Shown: piece by piece, positions 4,983 to 19,160 of the stretch | Numbering within the stretch: position 1 is the first letter of the stretch | How the letters are laid out: every line of letters starts with the position of its first letter | From: Dictyostelium discoideum | Lineage: Eukaryota | Reading direction: 5' to 3' | Assembly: GCA_000004695.1 (NCBI GenBank) | Contig: CM000152.2 | Location: forward strand, 1,248,001 to 1,312,000 | Length of the DNA stretch: 64,000 nucleotides | Notes under the pieces: generated by a model | What the model was told of the DNA's origin: nothing | Databases searched by the model: none | The model's input: the letters and a program-made list of their open reading frames with translations, nothing else | Position numbers and translations under genes: made by a program

Positions 4983-7900
4983 TTAATGATCAAAATTATC
5001 ACTGAATTTTTGGATATAACGTTTTGCAACACCAGAGAAAGCTAAACTAATTGGACTATCTGGATTACGTCTGGTTAAAGCAGTTGCAATAACTTTTAAT
5101 ATTAAAGAGAATTCTTTTAAAAGAGTCCAAAGATCACTTTCTTTAATTTTGTTATCTTCAATTAATGGTTTCTTTTGTGAGTGTTTATAAAAATCCAAAA
5201 GGTATGAATTAACTGGAGAACCATCGACATTACAATAAGGTAAGATACGAGTTGAGAAATAAGTATTCGAACCAAGGATATTTTTCAATTTCTTTAAATT
5301 TGAAACCTTGAAAATACCAGAAAGTAAATCACCAGTATTGAAATTTTCAGTGGATGGTTTTAACTTTTCAAAGTTTTCATTCCATTTGTTTGTAATTGTT
5401 GATGTTGTCGCTGTTGTTGTTGTTGTTGTTGTTTTTTGAGAGTCTTTTAAATCATTTGATGAAAATGGTAAGAAATCATTGGTAGACTTTAAATATTTCT
5501 TATAAACGTAAAGGTAGGTTGAAAATGTTTTTAATAATCTATCATTATGATTTTTTATAATTTTGTGGACAGTTGGTGGTAATGGAGGAAGTATTAAAAT
5601 TGAAGGTGATCTAACATAAATTGATGGAATATTTTGAACACAAAATAAGTATGAAAGGATATGAATAATGAAGTAATCACAATCCTTTTGATTGGTTGGT
5701 AAATTATCAAATACACCACCCTTTAACAATGAAACAAAAGTAAAGTTAAATGGTTCTAAATAACTGAGATGGGTGACAATACCACTAAAGTTATCCATTG
5801 GAACACAGTCTTTAGATAAATAAGTTTCTCTATACAAATAATCAATTGAAAAAAGGAATTGGAATTGAACTTGAAGTGGATTACCTAAAAAGAATGAATT
5901 ATTTAAAAGTGATTTTGTTGATTTCTTTAAAATTTGAACATCTAATATATCTTCAGAACTTAATTTTTTTAAGCTTGTAGTTGTAGGTGTTTTTGTGGTT
6001 GTTGTAGTTGCTGGTGTATTTTCAGTTGTTGTAGTTGTAGGTGTAGTTGCAGGTGTTGTTTTGGTTGATTCCGCTGTTTCTTCTTCGTCATCATCCCAAT
6101 TATCAGCAACAGTAATTTCTTTTTTATCATCATCATCATCCCAATTATCAGCAATAGTTTCTTTCTCTTTCTCTTTTTCTTTTTCTTTTTCTTTTTCTTT
6201 TTCTCTTTCTTTTTCATTTTCTTTAACTTGAACTTTATTTTCTTCATTTGATTTATTAGCTGAGCCATTGGTAGAATAATCATATCTACTAACTAAAGAT
6301 AAACATAATGATGGAGAGACAACTGAATTACCAATGATATTTGATAATCTTGAATTAAGTAATCTGTTTATTTTTTGTTTTGGTAAGCCTACGAAAATTA
6401 CATTACCATAGTTATCAAAACCACGTCTACCAGCTCTACCAGCACATTGTTTTGAGGTTAAAACATTTAGATAAGGGCTATCACCTAAAAATACAGAGGA
6501 TTTAGCGGGAGCGTTAACACCAACGGCAAGTGTTGAAGTTGCAAATACCACTTGAATCTTTTTACTTCTAAATAGATATTCAACATTTCTAAGATAGTTT
6601 TTATCACAACCACCATGATGTGCGGCAATACCTTGTGTTAAAGCAGGTGCAAGTGGATCTTTCTTTACCTTTTCATCTATATCTGATGATAATAAATTAC
6701 CAAATTGAGGTTTTAAATAATCTAAAGAGGCTCTTTTTGCTTTTAATCTCTCCAATTCCATCTTTTCTGGATCATTTGGTTCTAAATCAGCCAAAGCACG
6801 ACCTAATGATTTTTGGAATCTTTCAATGACTAGATCCAATTGTTTCTTCTCTTCAATGATATTTGGATTTGTATTTCTATGAGTGATATCATTATATACT
6901 CTTTGAGCCAATCTAGAACATAAACTACGATTGAATGAAAAGAAAAGAGCTGGTAAAAGATCTTGCTTTTGAAGTTCCAATACAATATTTGTAATTTCAG
7001 AGGCCCAATCAAATTTCAATGAATCATTATATTTTGGACTAGTTAAAGCTTTGACAACCAATTGTTTCTCTGTCATAGATGGTAAGTTTGTGTAGAATTG
7101 TTTCAATTCTGCCTGATAGATTTCTATGTGTTGTTTCTCTAAATTGAATTGTTTATTTGGAATATTTGCAAAGAATTTAACAGGATCCAAATGGTTTACT
7201 TTTTCATAACCAAGCTTTTCTTTCAAAACCTGATACATTTGAATTGCTTCACCAGCTATTAATTTCAAATCTGGTGATATATCAGAGAGACCAGTTTTCT
7301 TTTGATCTAAAGTTGCCATTGGATGTAATGGTTCAATGGTATAGGTTGGAAAGCTCTTATTATCTTTTGCAGGAGTTTGACAAAGGAAAAAGTTTTTCAA
7401 ATCATTGAAACGACTTTGATAATGAATCAATGATACTTTTCTATTTGGATCAATCTTTTTCAAAAAGTTATGAAAATCTGTTAAATTACCCAATGTGGCT
7501 GATAATGCTAAAAATGGAGCAGGATTGAAAACTAACAATCTCTCCCAAATGGCACCATCGACAGAGGAAGCAATTTGATGAACTTCATCAAAGATTATAT
7601 ATCTACAACGTTGAATAAAGTGAGTGTTCATAATGGAGAGGAATAAAATCTCTAAACATTGTGGAACTGTAATTAAGATTTGACAAGTTTCAATGTTTAA
7701 TCTAAAATCTCTTGTGAAAACACCTACCATTTTATGATTTGATGGTCTATGATTTATAGCTTGATAGTTCTTATCATATCTACCCAATACTTCTGCATAC
7801 ATTTGGTTGACCAATGCTTTTGTTGGACAAACGAAAACAACGATACCATCATTACTTTCTTTTAAAATTTGTTCAAAACAATAGAAAGAAATAAAAGTTT

Positions 7901-9357
7901 TACCACTTGATGTACTTGCACAAATTAAAGCTGATTCTCTTTTATCAACAATATCCAACAACTCTACTTGCCAAGCATCAGGTTTAAAATGTCTAACTCT
8001 TGAATCTTCAACTGAACCTGTATTTCTAATTAAAGTATCTGGAGAATGTTTCAATTGAAACTCGATTGAATTCTTTAATTGTTGATTACCAACATCAGAT
8101 TCATCCAATTTTGGTAGTTTCAATTTCCAATGATCATTGATAAAATTTGATAAATCTGATAAACCTATCAATGATTTTGAAATTGTATAAAAACGATTTG
8201 CAAAATCAATTTGTAATTTTGTTGATAAAATTTTAGATTTTTCAGTGATGAAAGATCTTAAATACTTTTGAATCATTTGATAAAATTGTGATTTTTCTTT
8301 AATACCCAATTCGAGTGAAGTTTCAATTTCTTTTTCTTCATACTCTGATAATTCAATATGTGTCTTAGTTTTCGATTGTTGTTTACGTTCTAATAGAATT
8401 GTTCTTTTCTTTTCTTCAATTAAATCTTCTTTTTGTTTCACCAAGAAATTAATTAAATGATCAAAATATTGTAAATACAATTCTGGTAATGAAGTTAATA
8501 AATCTAAATTATTTAAAAACTTTAAAAATGATTTTATTGATTTACAATCATCCAATTCTGATTCATATCTTTTTTTATCTTGATTTAATCTACTCTCCAA
8601 TAGTTTACCTATTTCACTCTTTGGTTTAATAGTTGATGAAGTTGTTGTTGAAGTTGTTGTTGTTGATGATGACGATGATGATGATGATTGTTTTTTATAA
8701 GATTTTTTTGAATCTTCTTTTTCTTTTTTAATTCTTTCTTTTTCCAACTCTTCTTTTGTTGGATTTAATTTATTGATAATTAAAATATTTCTTGGATCAT
8801 TTAAAGAGTCTGCATACTTTTTAAATGAGCCAACTGATTTATCCTCTGCACGTTGTTTATGTTTTTTAGTCTTAAAAGTGGTCTCTTTTAATTTGATACT
8901 GAATGCATCTGGTTCAATTGTACGTGTTGAATGAAAATGATAATTATCAATGAATCTTGTATTGATTGTTGATTCAGCATCTGGATAATTTTCACTTTGG
9001 AATGGTTTTAAATATTCATAAGCCTGTGGTGCAACTGATCTAATGAAATCATTCTCTACTAAATAGATACTATTATCAATTGAATTAATCTCTTTTGTTC
9101 TTCTTTCCATTTCTTGAATAATATCATTTAAATTATTATTTCTATCTTGAAAATTTGAAAATAATTCAAAATTATCAAATTCACCAATATCATAACCAAA
9201 ATCTTTTTTTACATTATTCCAAATTAATTTTGATTTAATTATAATTTCTTCACCAAATATATTATTTAATTCATTTAAATCTTTTGGTAATTTAATTTGA
9301 ATTTGAATTAAAATTTGATAAAATAATTTAAAATCTAAATAATCTAAATTTATATTT

Positions 9358-9403
<46 letters not shown>

Positions 9404-10539
9404 TACTACTACTACTACTATCACTAACTTGTTGTAAATATAATAAATTTTTATATGAAGCATTGTCTAAAAAATTTAAAACATTTTCATCAATTTTATA
9501 ACATGTTGGTAATATAAAACCTCTATCTCTAATTGATAATGATTCTAATAAAACTAAATAAATACAATAGATTCTATTTAAATTATTTGATATATCATTA
9601 TTGAACATTGTTGAAATAAGTAAATTAATTTCATTATCTCTATTTTCACTTTGTTGTTGATTAAATAAAATTTGATTTTGATCTTTAAAACTTAATTTAT
9701 CAGAATTAAAATTTTCAAATTCATTATTATAAAATGAATCAATTTGTTTGAAAAATTCTTTATTACAAAAGTATGGATAACCTCTTTGAAACATTGTTCC
9801 TTTTCCATAAATTATAGTTTCAATACATGAACCTTCAAATGAGATTGAATTAAATTCTACAACATAATCTAAAAATTTCATTGTTTTTAAAATAAATACC
9901 TCTTGAATATCAACTCGATAATATTTTTCAAATGATTCTTGTGCTGGAAATAAAACCAACATAAATGAAAACATATTCTCTAAAAGATATGATTCAATAC
10001 TACTAAAATCTTCCCACCATTTTGATTTAATTAATGTAAATTGAACATTTGAATTATTTAAAACATTTTTTTTATCATTATTAATATAATAATCAATACA
10101 AATTTTTCTAATTAATTTCTTTTTTAATTTTTAAAAAAAAAAATAAAAAAATTAAAAGTATTAATATTAGTAAAAAGTTTGAAAAAAAATTATAATTTCT
10201 AATTACTAATTATTAATTACTTACTAATGTATTATTTTTATAAAAATATTGATTTTCATCAATAAAAAATATTTGAAATTTTGTTTTTCTATTTAAAACA
10301 TTTGCAATAAAAGATTCGAAATAATGAAAGAATAAAATTGATTGACATTTATCTGTTGATAATAATTGTTTATCTTTTATTTTATGTGATGAAATATTAA
10401 ATGTTGAAAATAGATATAAAATTAAAGAATCACCATCAATAAGAAATGGTTCATCTGCTCCAAAATCTGATAAAACATTAAATGTTTTTGTTGGAAATAA
10501 TAAATCACCTAACATTAATTTTTTTTCAATATTTTCCAT
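4983..10539 (-). CDS. DDX60-like / Ski2-family superfamily-2 DExH helicase, about 1816 aa; complement(join(4983..10118,10225..10539))
   Basis: Helicase motif I ALICASTSSGKTF, motif II IIFDEVHQI, motif III LSATLGN, C-terminal domain motifs GIAAHHGG and FATSTLAVGVNAPAKSSVF, and motif VI QCAGRAGRRGFD. The helicase core sits in the middle of a very large protein, as in DDX60. The frame upstream of the annotated Met at 9974 is open to 10118 with an AG acceptor at 10119-10120. The ORF 10213-10539 starts at an ATG and ends on a perfect GTAAGT donor at 10219-10224, in phase 0, giving a 106-nt intron. A KEKE repeat and a poly-Asn stretch are present. Confidence 0.75.
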
Positions 10540-10615
10540 TGTAAAAATTATTTGTATATTATTATTATTATTATTTTTAAAAAAAAAAAAAAAAAACTTA
10601 TTTTTTACAGTGAAA

Positions 10616-10647
<32 letters not shown>

Positions 10648-10941
10648 TTGTGTATAATATTTTGAAAAATAAAAAATAAAAAAAAAATAAAAAAAAAAAT
10701 TTTATTTAATAGGTTTAGGGAATCTGTATTTTTACAAATTTGGTTTTTTCCAATAATTGAACAAAACATTTTAATTTTAAAAAATCCAAATTTGGTTACC
10801 TATGTTTAATTTAAAAAATTTAAACATAATTTAACGAATAAAAATAAAAATTAAATTTTAAAAAAAAAAAAACATCGATTTAATTTTTTTAAATCTAAAA
10901 TATATATTTTTATTTTTATTTATTTATTTATTTATTTATTT

Positions 10942-11964
10942 TTAATTAGTTGTTGTTGATTTTAAATTTGATTTTAAAATCATTTCATTTAATTGAATTG
11001 ATTTTAAATGATTATTACCATATACTAAAACTGAATGATTATAAGAATTTGTATAACATTGATTAATAAATTTTAATAAATTTTTAATATCAGAATTTAA
11101 TTTATCAATATCAAGATCTTGTTTATTTTGATTTTGTAATTTTAATTGATTGAATTGATTTCTTTGTTTAATTAATGATAATAGATATTTCTCATTAATT
11201 CTACCTAAATGGTAATAACAATCAACCAATTCACCAGATGTTGAAGATTTGAAAATCGATTCAACATGTCTGGTTAACTCTTTATAATGTTGAATTGATT
11301 GAACCAAGTAATCGAAATTATTGTAAACCAAAGACAACTTTTCAAAAGTTTTCGATAACTTTATATGATAAATTAACCAACATTGATGATTCAAATTCAA
11401 TCTTGACAATACATCTCTTTCAAATTTTAATAATCTTTTTAAAATATTCTCAATTATTGGCATCTCCTGATCAGCAGTTGACAAATTAACATCATTGAAT
11501 AACAATTGCTCACTATTGATAAACTCTTTAAATTCATTGATTCCTGCTAAAATCAATACCAATTCTGGATCCTTATTTCTCTTATTTTGTTTCTTTTTAT
11601 TGAATTCACAAGTGTTACTTGTATTTGAACATTTCCAATTCTCTTGTAATTTCTTTGTATCTTTATTAAAATAAATTTCTGGTGAAATAAATTCAACACC
11701 ATCATTACAATGGAAACAATAAATTGATGATAAATATCTTTCATCCTCTGTTGAATCACTACATCTTGAACATTTACATAAAAAGTTTTTACTATTATAT
11801 AATATTTTTTGTCTTTCAATTGTTGGTAATAATAAATCAACATATGAATCAACAATTTCTTCATCTTTTTCAATTTTTTTACATGCTCTCATTTCTAAAT
11901 TTTTATCTATAAAAAAAAAAAAAAAAAAAAAAGGAGAAATTTTTTATAAAAAATTAGTAATAAT

Positions 11965-11998
<34 letters not shown>

Positions 11999-12744
11999 AA
12001 TCCCCTTTGAACTATACCTTTAATTGTAAAAAATATATTTGGTTCACAAGAATGATTTAATAAAGCTGGTTTATAGAAATAACCATTTGAAATTGGTTTA
12101 CGATTAAAGTCATTTGAAAGACCAGAGAATGAATTAATATAGATTGAAGAAATTATTTGTAAAAACTCATCTTTATTAAAGATTGCTAATAATGATGGAT
12201 CAGAATTCTCTTGTTGTAATTGATTGATAAATTGTTGGAAATTAATATCATACTTTTCAATGAATGATTTATTAATTTCAATGAATTTCTCTAATTGATT
12301 TGAAAGTTTACCAACTGTTTCTTGATATTTATCACTTTCAATCTTATTTCTAATCATTATTCTCAATGCCAATAAACATGTTGATACATCACATTCATTC
12401 TTTATTGATGATTCAATCAATTTATTAATGAATGAACATTCCAATTGATGTGTCATATCATTTGAACAAATTTCTGAACAAAACCACATATTACATCCAA
12501 ATTTACATTGAATTGATTTATTATTTGTTTGTTGTGGTTGTTGGGATGGTTGTTGTACTTGTTCAACTTCCGATTGTTTACAACATAAGAAACAGTAATC
12601 TTTGTTCATATGAAATTCTAATGGAATTGATGCAAATGATTCTTCTGGGAATAATAATTCTCCAACTTTAATTTCATTTGTAGCTACAACAAAATTTCCT
12701 CTTTCATCATTATTATTTACTAATTTACATTTATCTGTAATCAT
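10942..12744 (-). CDS. SMYD-family SET + MYND zinc-finger lysine methyltransferase, about 563 aa; complement(join(10942..11906,12018..12744))
   Basis: SET N-region GNFVVATNEIKVGELL. MYND finger CFLCC...CKFGCNMWFCSEICSNDMTHQLEC. NHSCEPN motif followed by a GTATAG donor in phase 1. An aatatAG acceptor is followed by the SET-C region EEIVDSYVDLLLPTIERQKIL and post-SET cysteines FLCKCSRC. The intron is 111 nt. Confidence 0.72.
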
Positions 12745-13225: not shown

Positions 13226-13756
13226 ATGAACGGTCAAGGAAAGTATGTAGGATTTGGAAATGAAAAATCATCATCAGATTCACCATTTCCAGAATTACGT
13301 TCCAATTGGAGGGAACTCATTTATTTAAGATCTTGGCAAGCATCAGGTTTTGTTACAGTTTTATATTATTTCAGCTTTTTAGTTGGATTAATGTATTTCA
13401 TTCAAAACATTGTATTATTCACTAGAGACCTTGGTGCAGGTGGTTTCTTCCTTGGTTTACTCTATGGTACTTTGTATTTCATTAGTTTTATTTTAGCCGC
13501 TCGTATCGTTTCAGAAATCGTTTTATCAATTTTCGATATTAGAGATAACATTTACAGAATTTCAGCAAGCTCTGGTCCATCCATTGTTTCAAGTGGTCCA
13601 TCAACTTCATCATATCAAGGTTCATACCAACAACCAACTTATCAACCACCACAACCATCCCAACAACAACAACAACCATCCCAACAACAATCTTACCAAC
13701 AATCATCTTCAACTGAATTCCCAAAATACCAAGAACCATATCAAGGTAACCTTTAA
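13226..13756 (+). CDS. Hypothetical small membrane protein (176 aa): two predicted TM helices followed by a Q/P/Y/S-rich low-complexity tail
   Basis: ATG at 13226 with an A-rich leader. Hydrophobic segments FVTVLYYFSFLVGLMYFIQNIVLF and GGFFLGLLYGTLYFISFILAARIVSEIVLSIF. The tail reads SYQGSYQQPTYQPPQPSQQQQQPSQQQSYQQ. No family recognised. Confidence 0.5.
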   Translation: MNGQGKYVGFGNEKSSSDSPFPELRSNWRELIYLRSWQASGFVTVLYYFSFLVGLMYFIQNIVLFTRDLGAGGFFLGLLYGTLYFISFILAARIVSEIVLSIFDIRDNIYRISASSGPSIVSSGPSTSSYQGSYQQPTYQPPQPSQQQQQPSQQQSYQQSSSTEFPKYQEPYQGNL

Positions 13757-13827
13757 ATAATTTTTTATTTATTTAAAAATCAAGACCAAATGAAAATAAA
13801 AAAAAAAATAAAAAAAAATTAAAACAA

Positions 13828-13860
<33 letters not shown>

Positions 13861-14148
13861 AATTGTTTTGTAAGACTTAATTTTTTATTATTATTTTATT
13901 TTATTTTATTTTATTTTTTTCTTTTCTTGGTGTGAAAATTATTTAAAAATAATAATAATAATAATATTGATAATAATAATAATTATGTGATCAAATTTGA
14001 TGGATTTTATTTTAAGATATTTTTTTTTTTTTTTTTTTTTTTTCTTTGGTTGCAAATCTATGGAGAGAAAGCTGGTTTGTTAAGAATATTTATTAAAAAA
14101 TGGTATAAAATAAATTAGTATTATTTTATTTTATTATTTTATTTTTTT

Positions 14149-14283
14149 TTAAAAAAAAAAAAAATTACAATTTGGTTTTTTTTTTGGTTGCGTAACCAAG
14201 GGTGCGGGGGGAGCAACTGCTGGCTTTGGAATTGTAGCCCTCATATTGTTAGAATTTGTTACACCATTTCCTGCAAAATTCAT
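14149..14283 (-). CDS. Small ORF copy 1 (44 aa) MNFAGNGVTNSNNMRATIPKPAVAPPAPLVTQPKKKPNCNFFFF. Member of a 3-copy local paralogue family. Coding status unproven.
   Basis: ATG..TAA ORF lying in a moderately GC-enriched island within an AT desert. Shares the GNG and P(K)P-A-A-P motifs and DNA similarity with the copies at 14788-14895 and 15361-15495. Confidence 0.25.
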   Translation of the reverse strand: MNFAGNGVTNSNNMRATIPKPAVAPPAPLVTQPKKKPNCNFFFF

Positions 14284-14618
14284 TTTTTTTTTTTATTTCT
14301 ATTGTTTGTTGTTTTTATTAAAAAAATTATAATTAAATTAGAAAAATAAAAAAAATTTTTCACTCAAAATAATAAAAATATTGACCAAAAAAAAAAAATA
14401 AAAAAAAAAAAAGAAAAAAAATATCTAAAAAAAAAAAAAATCTAAAATATCTTTTTGTTGTGATCCTTACAGGATATTGGAAAAAAAAATATTCATACGA
14501 AATTTTTTTTTTTATTTTTTTATTTTTTTATTTTTTTATATTTTTATTTTTTTATATTTTTTGTTTTTAATTTTTTTTTTTTTCTTTAAACTTTGTCAAC
14601 ATTTATTTGACCAAATAT

Positions 14619-14649
<31 letters not shown>

Positions 14650-14787
14650 TGAATTAATAAATATATTTTTTTGAATTTGTAATTTCTTATAAGGCAAATT
14701 TTTTTGGATCTTTTGAAATTGATAATTAAATTTTTTAAATTTTAGTGATTGTTAAATAATTATTTTTTAGAATTTGTTTTTTTATTA

Positions 14788-14895
14788 TCAATTATAAAAC
14801 TTACCAATTGTAATTACACCATTTGGAGGTGAAATTTTTTTATTGCCACCATTTCCTTGGTGATGAAGATTTGGGGAAATTTTTATTTTTAACAT
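14788..14895 (-). CDS. Small ORF copy 2 (35 aa) MLKIKISPNLHHQGNGGNKKISPPNGVITIGKFYN. Contains a GGTAAGT donor-like site near its 3' end.
   Basis: ATG..TGA ORF. The DNA segment ggaaatggtggcaataaaaaaatttcacctcc resembles the copy-3 segment ggaggaaatagtaataaaaatcaaatc, and aaatggtgtaa is shared with copy 1. Confidence 0.2.
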   Translation of the reverse strand: MLKIKISPNLHHQGNGGNKKISPPNGVITIGKFYN

Positions 14896-14939
14896 TTTAT
14901 TTTAATTGATTATGGAAGTATATTTTTGTGTTTCAAGAA

Positions 14940-14975
<36 letters not shown>

Positions 14976-15360
14976 TTTTTTTATGTTTACAAAAAAAATA
15001 AAAATATAAAAATTAAAAAAAAAAAAAAAAAAAATCTAAAAATATCTAGGTTTGTATAAAATACCAAAAATTTTAATCAAAAAAAAAAAAATATTGGTTT
15101 TTTGATTTATTTTAATTTTTAATAGACATGTTTAAGCTGTGAAATTATCACCATTATCTATTATTATTATCATTATTATTATTGTTATTATTATAATTAT
15201 TATAGATTAAATAGAAAAACTTTTTTTAATTTATTTAAATATTTAATAAATGTGAAACACCTTTTGGTATTTGTTTAGATTGTAAAACTAGGACTTCCCT
15301 CTATTAAAAAAAAAAAAAAAAAAAATTAATAAATGATCTAATTAATTACTATTCCACTTT

Positions 15361-15495
15361 TTATTTTAAAGATTGGTTGATATACAAACTTCCTGGTTTT
15401 GGTGCTGCTGCTGGTGGAGTGGGTTTAAAAAAGATTTGATTTTTATTACTATTTCCTCCTGGACAGATTGCAGTGGATGGCAGAGTGAAAGTCAT
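15361..15495 (-). CDS. Small ORF copy 3 (44 aa) MTFTLPSTAICPGGNSNKNQIFFKPTPPAAAPKPGSLYINQSLK
   Basis: ATG..TAA ORF. PTPPAAAPKPGSLYINQ aligns with copy-1 IPKPAVAPPAPLVTQ. Confidence 0.25.
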   Translation of the reverse strand: MTFTLPSTAICPGGNSNKNQIFFKPTPPAAAPKPGSLYINQSLK

Positions 15496-15610
15496 TGTTG
15501 AGAAATAAAAAAGTAATGATGATGGGAATGAAATAAAAAAAAAAAAAAAAATTAAAAAAAATAAGAGTTATTATTGTGTGGGATGAAAAAAAAAAATAAA
15601 AAAAAAAAAA

Positions 15611-15644
<34 letters not shown>

Positions 15645-16353
15645 TCTGAAAATATCTTTTTTATTTGTACATTTGCACTTTTTTTAAAAAAATATTTTCA
15701 TTTTTATTTTATTTTTTTTTATTTTCCATTTATATTTATTTTATTGTTTTTTTAAAAAAAAAGATAATTGATTGGATATAATTAAAATAATTAAATAGTT
15801 ACCTCTCTTATTTTTAATTATTATTATTATTTTTTTTTAATTTTTAAATCCAAATAAATGAATTGAATCTGGATTATTATAGGTTTTTTTTCTTTTTAAT
15901 AATTAAATTAGAAATAAAAAAAAAAAAAATATATTTATATATACCGATTCAGTCAAATAAATTATATTATTTTATTTTATTTATTTTTTATTCAAAATAA
16001 TCTATTTTTTTTAAATAAAATATATTCCCTCTCCTTTTTCCTCAAAATATAAAACAATTACAAAAAATGAATAATAATTAAATTCTAAAAATGAAATTTT
16101 TGATTAAAAAAATAAATAAATAAAATAAAAATAAAAATAAAAATTGATGATTAAAATAAGTTTTTATTCTTTTTTTATTTATTTGAAAAGGTGACACATT
16201 TATTATTTTTTAATTTTTTTAATTTTTTCAAAAAAAAAAAAATAAAAAAAAAAAAAAAAAAAAAAAATTGAAAAAAAAAGAATAAAAATATTTATTTTGT
16301 CATTGGCAATACCAATAATATAACTTTTCATAAAACAAGTTTTATCTCTAAAA

Positions 16354-17393: not shown

Positions 17394-18777
17394 TTAAGAT
17401 GCCTCTGGAGAATCGAATAGTTTTTTACATTCATCTTCCATAAAATCTTTATAAACTTCGAATCTATGATTTAAGGATTTTTCAGTATGAATTTTTAGAT
17501 AGGAACCCAAGCCACCATCTCTACTACTTGAACCATATACAACTCTTTTAACTCTACTATGAACTAGAGCCATTGAGCACATTATGCAGGGCTCTTTAGT
17601 TATAAATAAATGAAAGTTTGTCGCTAAATATTGTCCAAGATTTACAAAACTTAAAATATTACATTCTTCTTTTTCTTCTTTTTCTTCTTTTTCTTCTTTT
17701 TCTTTTTCTTCATCATTATCATTACAAATTTCATTTTCATTTTTATTTTCATTTTTATTTTCATTTTCGTTTCGATTTTCAAATTGTTTCTCTTTTTCAA
17801 ATTTTTTTTGTTCTTTCATTTGTTTTTTAATATCATCAACTTGTTCAGTTGATAATTTATTGGTTATTGTCATTATACAATGAGAAATGATTGGTGAAAT
17901 ATATTGAGTCTCTGAGATTTCAGGTGTTTCGTCCACTGATATTCTATTGGTTTGATCATATGATGTTGCAACGATTTTATTAGTATTTGGGTCAATTAAA
18001 ACTGCACCAATTCCTTTATGACCTCTCTTTTTACCAATCTCAGCTTGCTCAATAGCTAATGACATATACTTTCTCATTTCTAATAATGTTTCATCTTTTA
18101 CATTTGATATTAATGGTGTTGAACTATTATTATTATTAATATTATTATTATTATTATTATTATAAAGATGGTTAGTACAAAACAATATGAATAAAAAAAA
18201 AAAAAAAAGAAAATAATAAAAAAATAAAAAAATCATACAAAATATGAGCTCTAAATACACATGGCCAAATATTATAATTCCAATCCTCCCATATTTCATA
18301 AAGCAAAGGTGGATATTTTGGTACTTTTTCAATTGAAACTATAAAATCATTACTTTTTATAAATTTAATAATTCCTTTTTGTTCATTTGATAATGATTGA
18401 TATTCACTATCATCATCATTACCTATAAATTTAATTTCACCCAACTCTTTATCATATTCAACATTCTCTAATATAATCTTTAAATTCTTAAATCTAGATT
18501 CACCACAAATTAATAATTGTAATAAATTACCTGTTTGTGATGATTGTTTTGTTGAATTTTTTGAAACTTTATTATCTTTTTCTACTTCTTCTTCTTCCTC
18601 TTCTTTATGTTTATCTTTTTCTTTATCACCATCAACAATTGTAGTTGATGGTGGAGGTGGTGATGGTTTCTTTTTTATTTTCTTTAAATGATTAAATTCA
18701 GAGGTGAAATCATCATTAATAATGTGTGATAATGTTTTTATATGTTTATTTGCTGTTTGTGCTAATATATCAATCAC
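17394..18777 (-). CDS. tRNA-specific adenosine-34 deaminase non-catalytic subunit (Tad3/ADAT3-like); complement(join(17394..18123,18239..18777)). The true 5' end is probably in an upstream exon.
   Basis: CDA-fold zinc motifs H-C-I (ISHCIMT, with the catalytic Glu replaced as in Tad3/ADAT3) and TKEPCIMCSMALVHSRVKRVVYG. The flanks LLEMRKYMSLAIEQAEIGKKRGHKGIGAVLIDPNTNKIVATSYD and LGSYLKIHTEKSLNHRFEVYKDF are collinear with the human ADAT3 deaminase domain. The two overlapping ORFs 18172-18777 and 17394-18332 are joined by a GTATGA donor at 18233-18238 and an aataatAG acceptor at 18124-18125, giving a 115-nt intron in phase 2. The 18239-18777 exon has no in-frame ATG. The track's start codon there is GTG, and the frame is open upstream to about 18845. 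Confidence 0.7.
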
Positions 18778-18872
18778 ATATATATTATCTAATAATATTA
18801 TTAAAGAAGTGAGAATTAGAACTTGAGATGTTTTTTTTTTAATCTTTTAATTTTTTAATTTTTTTTTTTTTT

Positions 18873-19160
18873 TTACAAACCTAAAACCAAACCATATTCC
18901 TCAAAATCGTCCAAAACTGGTTTAACTTGAGTTTTTATTCTTTTTAAAAATTCATTTTCTTCTTCGGTGAATTTTGGTGTTTCAACTTTATTTTTATTAT
19001 TTTTACTGGTGTTTACTTTCTTTTGTTTATTTGATTCTTTTTTATTATTTTCACTTTTATTTATATTATTATTATCATCAATTATTTTAGTATTAATATC
19101 TAAATTAGTTTCTGATTGTTGTGTCATTTCATTATGATCTCTTTTATGAATACTACGCAT
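18873..19160 (-). CDS. 95-aa ORF MRSIHKRDHNEMTQQ...FEEYGLVLGL. Either a small basic protein or the first coding exon of the downstream Tad3-like gene.
   Basis: Genuine ATG at 19158-19160. Lys/Asn-rich. Its 3' end (ggtttgtaa) lies 95 nt upstream of the open frame of the Tad3-like exon. Only weak GTTTGT/GTTTGG donors are available. Confidence 0.3.
   Translation of the reverse strand: MRSIHKRDHNEMTQQSETNLDINTKIIDDNNNINKSENNKKESNKQKKVNTSKNNKNKVETPKFTEEENEFLKRIKTQVKPVLDDFEEYGLVLGL

Follow-up and report, generated by a model that had tools for sequence, protein, structure and literature searches.

Three small same-strand open reading frames in an A+T-rich intergenic region of Dictyostelium discoideum are probably tandem two-exon micro-genes

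The question raised by this locus is whether three short open reading frames (ORFs), standing in a desert of A+T-rich intergenic DNA, are genes, and if they are, how they are built, and whether they are related to each other. The locus is part of a 64-kb stretch of chromosome 3 of Dictyostelium discoideum AX4 (the window, to which all positions refer unless another genome is named), extremely A+T-rich in its composition. Between a plus-strand ORF (13226-13756) identical to DDB_G0278831, a DUF4282 protein of D. discoideum AX4, and the next plus-strand gene, starting from approximately 16350, lies a 2.59-kb intergenic stretch (13757-16345) that houses three minus-strand ORFs beginning with ATG, at 14149-14283 (44 aa), 14788-14895 (35 aa), and 15361-15495 (44 aa). 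An earlier note on this DNA described them as islands of elevated GC spaced about 600 bp apart, and this description holds: the ORF listing returns exactly the same coordinates, the ATG-to-ATG distances are 612 and 600 bp, and the GC content of the exons is 0.41, 0.30, and 0.42, versus 0.149 for the intergenic stretch overall and 0.112 once the exons are taken out. We consider it likely that these islands represent three tandem, same-strand, paralogous protein-coding micro-genes, numbered here genes 1, 2, and 3 and corresponding, respectively, to DDB_G0278833, probably DDB_G0278835, and DDB_G0278837.

The loci are already known in the sense of being catalogued as hypothetical genes and being present in expression tables, and what is new is the two-exon structure, the family relationship, the shared upstream element, and the pattern of selection. 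As to the suggestion of the earlier note that such genes would be overlooked by ORF-length cutoffs, this is not so, with DDB_G0278833 and DDB_G0278837 present in protein databases and DDB_G0278835 present in expression tables. ORF1 is identical at every residue to hypothetical protein DDB_G0278833 (Q54XN4, 44 aa). The profile of gene 3 matches only DDB_G0278837, a protein of 57 aa (MTFTLPSTAICPGGNSNKNQIFFKPTPPAAAPKPGSLEVLVLQSKQIPKGVSHLLNI), whose database model has two exons, exon 1 being ORF3, of which the first 36 residues match. The gene 2 protein has no match in the searched protein collections, by either profile search or exact look-up, and these collections seem not to hold proteins as short as this one; gene 2 is almost certainly DDB_G0278835, judging solely from the place of this identifier between the other two. 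Full-text literature searches for the three identifiers returned no paper discussing any of them in its main text.

Evidence for coding comes from close relatives. Six orthologous 10-kb loci were fetched, anchored on the DUF4282 neighbor, and the whole intergenic region was aligned. One of these is a second D. discoideum assembly (L001), identical to the window across the aligned interval, two are from D. discoideum strains (L005, L006), two from D. cf. discoideum (L003, L004), and one from D. citrinum (L002). The counts of 18 copies given below refer to the three genes across the compared genomes, and those of seven sequences, AX4 included, to the spliced ORFs. In a six-frame check, the ATG frame alone is free of stops in 18 of the 18 copies, with each other frame broken in some copy. 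Internal gap runs in the exons are multiples of three in all eight cases, versus 15 of 56 (27%) in the introns and upstream DNA; at the non-coding rate, eight frame-preserving gaps out of eight would be expected about three times in 100,000. The A10 run within the coding sequence of gene 1 is constant in length, while non-coding A/T runs vary. When the AX4-to-D. citrinum substitutions are redistributed at random, the three frames are stop-free in 3.3% of the trials.

The pattern of substitutions points in the same direction for a part of each peptide. Concatenated ratios of non-synonymous to synonymous substitution rates (dN/dS) are 0.41-0.56 versus D. citrinum and 0.7-0.9 versus the closer genomes, compared to approximately 0.1 for the neighboring DUF4282 gene. 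In a core picked after seeing the alignment (gene 1, residues 1-14; gene 2, GNGGNKKISPPNG; gene 3, CPGGNSNKNQI), dN/dS versus D. citrinum is 0.15-0.3. As the synonymous rate in the core is normal (dS of 0.53, versus 0.56 in the remainder), this argues for purifying selection on a G-N-G/S-N core at the level of protein, rather than for a conserved DNA element, with the Pro-rich remainder of the peptides appearing to evolve almost neutrally.

The alternative that survives best, even though we regard it as fairly improbable, is that the islands are transcribed but non-coding, or that the ORFs are not functionally translated, the conservation being that of RNA or DNA elements and the open frames being incidental. 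Such an interpretation would agree with dN/dS near 1 over most of each ORF, with exon identity not exceeding intron identity, with the near-perfect conservation, in the D. discoideum group, of 50 nt past the stop of the shorter of the two gene 3 models (see below), and with the lack of homologues outside the clade among 5.8 and 1.8 billion proteins. It does not agree with the single open frame and the exclusively frame-preserving exon indels, with the constant A10 run, with many synonymous and few non-synonymous changes in the core, or with starts, stops, and splice signals that are either kept or replaced in frame, nor are there Rfam matches to support it (none at gathering thresholds over the whole window).

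Specific RNA candidates were also considered. A tRNA scan returned nothing, and the single weak match in Rfam at E up to 1 on 13760-16350, to a plant-virus element, was taken as chance. Dictyostelium class I non-coding RNAs (ncRNAs) are marked by an upstream DUSE motif, a conserved 11-nt sequence, CCTTACAGCAA, and a terminal stem. The plus-strand CCTTACAG at 14465-14472 was rejected as a representative of this class: it lies within a palindrome of variable spacer, the orthologues do not retain the motif, and neither a DUSE-like CCCA[CT]AA approximately 60 nt upstream of it on the plus strand nor an Rfam match was found. The palindrome itself, located just upstream of the gene 1 upstream element (Table 1), has 5-bp arms that are kept in nearly all genomes (L006 lacks one base of one arm) and a spacer of 3-4 nt that varies, and could be a binding site or a hairpin. 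The well-aligned introns were considered as hosts of small nucleolar RNAs and rejected, as on reading they are 85-91% A+T and without C or D boxes, their high identity being due to low complexity.

The 35- and 44-codon ORFs, however, probably do not represent the real coding sequences. Downstream of every island come, in order, a conserved GT, 77-135 nt of A+T-rich sequence, an AG, and a short block, also conserved, with which the frame closes, suggesting that the island is exon 1 of a two-exon gene, with putative splice junctions as listed in Table 1. Gene 2 has an invariant GTAAGT donor, gene 1 has GTAAT, and the donor of gene 3 is either GTTTGT or GTATAT. With the introns removed, all three genes have intact ORFs in seven of seven sequences. 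The length of exon 1 is always 1 mod 3 (115, 112, or 103 nt in gene 1, 91 or 103 nt in gene 2, and 106, 109, or 112 nt in gene 3) and that of exon 2 always 2 mod 3, and intron lengths vary without regard to 3. The intron phase is 1 in every copy, with GT and AG conserved (gene 3 having two candidate junction pairs), and in each gene exon 2 consists of 4-8 codons, ending in F-x-x-stop. The spliced AX4 products would be MNFAGNGVTNSNNMRATIPKPAVAPPAPLVTQPKKKPNSFSP, MLKIKISPNLHHQGNGGNKKISPPNGVITIDPKKFAL, and MTFTLPSTAICPGGNSNKNQIFFKPTPPAAAPKPGKGSPSFTI.

One example is gene 1, in which exon 1 is intact in all seven sequences, the GTAAT donor is kept in all genomes, the intron varies from 89 to 111 nt, in lengths that are not multiples of 3, and the exon 2 endings, SFSP, SGFSL, TGFQP, and SGFTP, differ by an in-frame 3-nt indel and substitutions, with the stop position constant. 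The "fourth degenerate copy" that the earlier note placed at 14048-14075 turns out to be this exon 2 (14071-14058), along with the start of the 3' end, having only GGTTGC in common with the island. Another example is gene 2, in which exon 1 is intact in all genomes, D. citrinum starting at an in-frame ATG 12 nt further upstream, the intron is 81-98 nt long, and the endings are DPKKFAL, NPKFTI, and NPIKFTI, with an in-frame 3-nt deletion in L003 that keeps the stop.

Reading the three genes as unspliced, of 44, 35, and 44 codons as first delimited, has in its favor that DDB_G0278833 is deposited as an unspliced 44-aa product and that the unspliced ending of gene 3, GSLYINQSLK-stop, is identical in four genomes. 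Nevertheless, we view it as distinctly unlikely. The read-through C-termini of genes 1 and 2 are erratic, entering T-runs and differing wildly between genomes (for example, GKFYN-stop versus GKFILIIKKQILKNNYLT-stop), while GTAAGT, GTAAT, or GT is found at the same phase in every copy and the conserved downstream block closes the frame; moreover, DDB_G0278837 is already modeled with an intron. Because of these erratic C-termini, the deposited single-exon model of DDB_G0278833 (ending in CNFFFF-stop) is doubted, and the comparison argues that it reads into the intron. Likewise, because the stops used in the earlier delimitation lie within the introns, the ORF ends given there are probably not real C-termini. 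Ten spliced or alternative peptide models were looked up by exact match in the protein collection, and none was present, giving no confirmation derived from complementary DNA; a look-up of contigs encoding the two deposited proteins also found none.

Gene 3, whose exon 1 is intact in all genomes, can be spliced in more than one way, and four donor/acceptor combinations were compared across the genomes. The short model, using the donor A|GTTTGT and the first AG, is the only combination that gives a consistent ending in six of six genomes (KGSPSFTI, KGSANFTI, KGSPNFTI, or KSGANFSS, each followed by the stop), with phase 1 and an F-x-x ending, as in genes 1 and 2, and it includes a switch of Ser from AGT to TCT and a replacement of the TAA stop by TGA. 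The database model, using the donor TT|GTATAT and the acceptor AGAG|G, gives a consistent 21-residue tail in five genomes, and in D. citrinum it meets a TGA at the junction codon, with a 5-nt deletion further downstream. On these comparisons, both models are defensible.

Two side observations concern this gene. On the minus strand, 18790-18872 appears to be an intron of a neighboring gene, between ORF pieces 18873-19160 and 18172-18777; it starts with GTTTGT, ends with TATTAG, and is the sole frame-compatible candidate, so that a GTTTGT donor may be used in this genome. An ab initio survey of introns in the window gave six candidates, one of them with a GTTTGT donor, too few for statistics. 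The other observation is that the approximately 50 nt past the stop of the short model (15235-15275, minus strand, CAAATACCAAAAGGTGTTTCACATTTATTAAATATTTAA) have almost no substitutions in D. discoideum and D. cf. discoideum, a conservation above that of the coding exon; it is accounted for either by coding (the database model) or by an element of the 3' untranslated region beside the AATAAA signal.

Table 1. Positions of the exons, putative introns, and upstream elements of the three genes in the window
Feature	Positions	Strand	Description
Gene 1 exon 1	14169..14283	-	115 nt; encodes MNFAGNGVTNSNNMRATIPKPAVAPPAPLVTQPKKKPN plus base 1 of the following codon
Gene 1 intron	14072..14168	-	putative; 97 nt, GTAATT...CCAG, 91% A+T, phase 1
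Gene 1 exon 2	14058..14071	-	encodes (S)FSP and stop
Gene 1 upstream element	14439..14452	-	AGATATTTTAGATT, then oligo-dT; first base ~169 nt upstream of ATG
Palindrome ATCCT-N3-AGGAT	14463..14475	.	ATCCTTACAGGAT; just upstream of gene 1 element
Gene 2 exon 1	14805..14895	-	91 nt; encodes MLKIKISPNLHHQGNGGNKKISPPNGVITI plus base 1 of the following codon
Gene 2 intron	14710..14804	-	putative; 95 nt, GTAAGT...AAAG, phase 1
Gene 2 exon 2	14687..14709	-	encodes (D)PKKFAL and stop
Gene 2 upstream element	15033..15047	-	AGATATTTTTAGATT, then oligo-dT; ~152 nt upstream of ATG
Gene 3 exon 1	15390..15495	-	106 nt in the short model; extends to 15386 in the database model
Gene 3 intron, short model	15301..15389	-	putative; 89 nt, GTTTGT...ATAG, phase 1
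Gene 3 intron, database model	15299-15385	-	GTATAT...AGAG
Gene 3 exon 2, short model	15275..15300	-	encodes (K)GSPSFTI and stop
Gene 3 exon 2, database model	15235..15298	-	encodes ...(L)EVLVLQSKQIPKGVSHLLNI and stop; 57 aa in total
Gene 3 upstream element	15643..15657	-	AGATATTTTCAGATT, then oligo-dT; ~162 nt upstream of ATG

As to the relationship among the three genes, the earlier note had reported peptide motifs shared by the copies and alignable DNA, and each of these claims stands in part. Peptide similarity between genes 1 and 3 is weak but significant (hhalign P = 0.0026 over 30 columns, with six of 1000 column shuffles reaching the observed score), and gene 2 shows no significant similarity to either by the same methods. 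At the DNA level, local alignments between the copies are only marginal overall, scores being reached in 95-186 of 3000 shuffles, and what all three genes do have in common is a short in-frame core, AGGAAATGGTG or GGAAATAGT (GGA AAT GGT/AGT), coding for G-N-G/S and placed at an identical offset in genes 2 and 3. They also have a common architecture, in terms of strand, spacing, exon sizes, phase-1 intron, and F-x-x-stop ending. Tandem duplication thus appears to be the best explanation, with the support for gene 2 weaker than the earlier wording implies, its paralogy being suggested by the architecture and the in-frame DNA core and not by significant peptide similarity.

The genes also share an upstream element. 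A search for repeats was dominated by homopolymer-like matches, along with a recurring unit of an A-run and ATCTAAAATAT spaced by approximately 590 bp. The plus-strand pattern AATCT-N4-5-TATCT, whose form on the gene strand is AGATATTTT(N)AGATT, with oligo-dT after it, has four matches in the 64 kb, three of them beside these genes, with 0.73 expected by chance. The three elements are 138-156 nt from the ATGs when measured from the nearest end (152-169 nt from the first base of the element), and the element, in the form AGAT-N6-AGAT, is kept in nearly all of the 18 orthologous copies, at 139-184 nt before the ATG. The gene 2 element is present in all orthologues, being duplicated in L004 and inverted in L003. 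In the latter genome the AGATATTTTTAGAT element is found inverted (ATCTAAAAATATCT) upstream of both genes 2 and 3, approximately 170 and 153 nt from the ATGs, and in direct orientation upstream of gene 1. Because it can be inverted at the same place, a factor-binding site suits this putative promoter or regulatory element better than a TATA-like core element.

Transcripts over 14.0-15.6 kb are represented in published RNA sequencing (RNA-seq) data, as gene-model counts for the three identifiers. DDB_G0278833 has an average expression (AveExpr) of 6.49 and a log fold change (logFC) of -1.58 on Klebsiella pneumoniae (adjusted P of 3e-9); DDB_G0278835 has an AveExpr of 4.28 and logFC of -0.99 on K. 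pneumoniae and -2.04 on Mycobacterium marinum (adjusted P of 2e-7); and DDB_G0278837 has an AveExpr of 7.30 and logFC of -2.46 on Bacillus subtilis (adjusted P of 1e-15; Lamrabet et al., 2020, PMC7078664, Tables S1 and S2). All three identifiers also appear consecutively, with the same columns, in the suspension_DOWN sheet of another study (Rosengarten et al., 2015, PMC4403905, Additional file 7), and therefore they are jointly down-regulated during starvation with pulses of cyclic AMP. Growing cells thus transcribe all three, and repression, on starvation and on bacteria, is common to them. The supplements of the paper on GtaC chromatin immunoprecipitation and RNA-seq and of the paper on cell-type RNA-seq do not mention the three identifiers. 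Overall, the proposal of small, tandemly duplicated peptide genes on the minus strand is supported by the conservation, in six other genome copies, of ORFs, starts, stops, and splice sites, by indels in multiples of three, and by the published RNA-seq.

Taken together, these data suggest a scheme in which each gene would be its own transcription unit, with the AGAT-N6-AGAT element and oligo-dT 139-184 nt before the ATG, followed by an exon 1 of 91-115 nt, a phase-1, A+T-rich intron of approximately 90 nt, and an exon 2 of 4-8 codons. The upstream element would drive the common regulation, and the peptides would be translated and act inside vegetative cells via the conserved core. As a best guess, they would be unstructured peptides of the growth phase, located inside the cell and exerting their action through this core. 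A further-reaching and rather less likely idea is that of a clade-restricted, rapidly diverging micropeptide family, young genes arisen by tandem duplication, whose core and F-x-x C-terminus might have a specific function in growing amoebae and which might be switched off jointly, through AGAT-N6-AGAT, on bacteria or starvation, representing an unrecognized class of growth-state regulators.

A number of points weigh against the interpretation of three paralogous coding genes. Outside the core, dN/dS is 0.8-1.0, so most of each peptide is barely constrained, the post hoc choice of the core pushes its own dN/dS down, and the nucleotide identity of the exons overall is not above that of the low-complexity introns. 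The splice junctions come from conservation, and for gene 3 there is a choice between a database model with another donor, acceptor, and exon-2 frame and a short model requiring a weak-looking GTTTGT/GTTGGT donor. The RNA-seq tables are read counts on gene models and carry neither strand nor junctions. Finally, gene 2 is linked to DDB_G0278835 through the order of identifiers, with its protein absent from the searched collections, and its peptide is not significantly similar to those of genes 1 and 3.

Two more alternatives are less probable than those already discussed. One is that a single larger gene has the three islands as its exons, as might be read from an automated model in L006 (6914-7400, minus strand, 118 aa) that extends gene 3 through the (AAT)n repeat. 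This we judge very unlikely, as each island has a conserved ATG, its own upstream element, and a conserved closing stop, the 500-nt spacers are poorly conserved and far exceed the inferred introns (89-97 nt), the microsatellites in the spacers are variable in length or absent in D. citrinum, and the 118-aa model could not be reproduced with a single intron. The other, raised in the earlier note, that of decayed relics of a short dispersed repeat or a mobile element, suggested by three similar units in a row and by plus-strand Gly/Ala-rich frames partly open in AX4, can be dismissed as the least probable of all: in six other assemblies the units are syntenic and single-copy, with the same genes on either side, neither the 64-kb window nor any of the six 10-kb loci contains an additional copy (outside the cluster, a tblastn search of the window with all 18 peptides gave only noise-level matches), there are no Pfam or transposon-like matches, the plus-strand frames are interrupted by stops in other strains, so that only the ATG frame is preserved, and frame-specific selection does not fit neutral decay.

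Assuming the reading of three coding genes, the products would be peptides of 37-43 residues (57 for the database model of gene 3), rich in Pro, Lys, Asn, and Gly, containing no more than one acidic residue, and having an isoelectric point of 10-11.3. The sequences of the three peptides, on reading, have no signal peptide, hydrophobic N-terminus, or transmembrane stretch, and the peptides probably lack a fixed structure. Their layout is that of a conserved G-N-G/S-N core, a fast-evolving Pro-rich spacer, and a short conserved F-x-x C-terminus. With E up to 10, none of the four peptide models matched a Pfam-A family. When 5.8 billion proteins were searched with profiles, genes 1 and 3 each returned only their own D. 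discoideum entry and gene 2 returned nothing, and an exhaustive phmmer search with DDB_G0278837 against 1.84 billion representatives returned only itself and P0009, a protein of 638 aa with ten SVAPAGDSYSNQTFSKT repeats, judged to be a compositional or repeat artefact. Thus, no homologue was found beyond the D. discoideum/citrinum group in the searched collections.

Variation of other kinds is also seen in the region. The (AAT)n/(ATT)n microsatellites located 3' of genes 3 and 1 (15140-15210; 6930-7110 in L006; near gene 1 in L003) are highly variable among strains, the one in L006 reaching approximately 230 nt and both missing from D. citrinum. In L004, the gene 2 upstream element and its flank (CAAACCAAGATATTTTTAGATTTTTATTTCC...) are duplicated in tandem over 79 bp, and the gene 3 5' leader (TTTCATTCCC..ATAATTACTTTTTTTATTTC) is duplicated as well. 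Of the spacer that separates gene 3 from the next plus-strand gene (approximately 15700-16270 in the window), approximately 600 bp are missing in D. citrinum; within this spacer, the D. discoideum group has small GC-containing blocks that are conserved, one example being GAGGAAAAAGGAGAGGGAAT on the minus strand near 16025-16045. The minus-strand upstream neighbors (4983-12744) are a 1663-aa ORF, whose L004 orthologue has DEAD, Helicase_C, and DDX60-type domains, and a two-exon gene, with a weak SET-domain match in the L001 orthologue; both are ordinary flanking genes.

The value of these observations is practical rather than conceptual, in that tiny ORFs in the AT deserts of Dictyostelium can be validated by comparison of close genomes. 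Corrections to the gene models are suggested, namely an intron and a different C-terminus for DDB_G0278833, possibly another exon 2 for DDB_G0278837, and a spliced middle gene, and three hypothetical genes are joined into what would be a single co-regulated family sharing a candidate cis-element. Peptides containing FAGNGVTNSNNMR, ISPPNGVITIDPK, or NQIFFKPTPPAAAPKPGK would be diagnostic of both translation and junctions. If the peptides are functional, they would be easy targets, as a single deletion of 1.5 kb covers all three genes, and they would add to the short list of characterized amoebal micropeptides.

The closest point of comparison is the existing models for DDB_G0278833, DDB_G0278835, and DDB_G0278837 in dictyBase and GenBank, which describe the same loci but do not treat them as a family; the deposited gene 1 model has no intron, and the exon-2 frame deposited for gene 3 fails in D. 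citrinum. Among known peptide systems, one to consider is that of the Pro-rich cationic antimicrobial peptides of the apidaecin, drosocin, and Bac7 type. Like these, the three peptides are short, strongly basic, Pro-rich, and probably unstructured, and the host eats bacteria, to which the transcripts respond. Unlike these, they lack both a signal peptide and a pro-region, conservation is lowest in the Pro-rich part, and bacteria repress rather than induce the genes, making the resemblance compositional only. Another is presented by the precursors of fungal lipopeptide pheromones of the a-factor type, which are 36-38 aa long, with no signal peptide and with a C-terminal CAAX box. The three peptides are like these in size, in having no signal peptide, and in being encoded by multiple tandem or duplicated genes, but there is no Cys at position -4 in any orthologue of the three genes, the ends being SFSP, KFAL, and SFTI. 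A third is that of the lineage-restricted, fast-evolving small-ORF genes in tandem arrays known in animals, plants, and yeasts. Unlike such micropeptide genes, the genes described here are spliced and belong to ordinary annotated models, rather than lying within annotated long non-coding RNAs, and are known from sequence and expression tables. Like them, they are under 100 codons, have homologues only in a narrow clade, are duplicated in tandem, and combine a high dN/dS with a short conserved motif.

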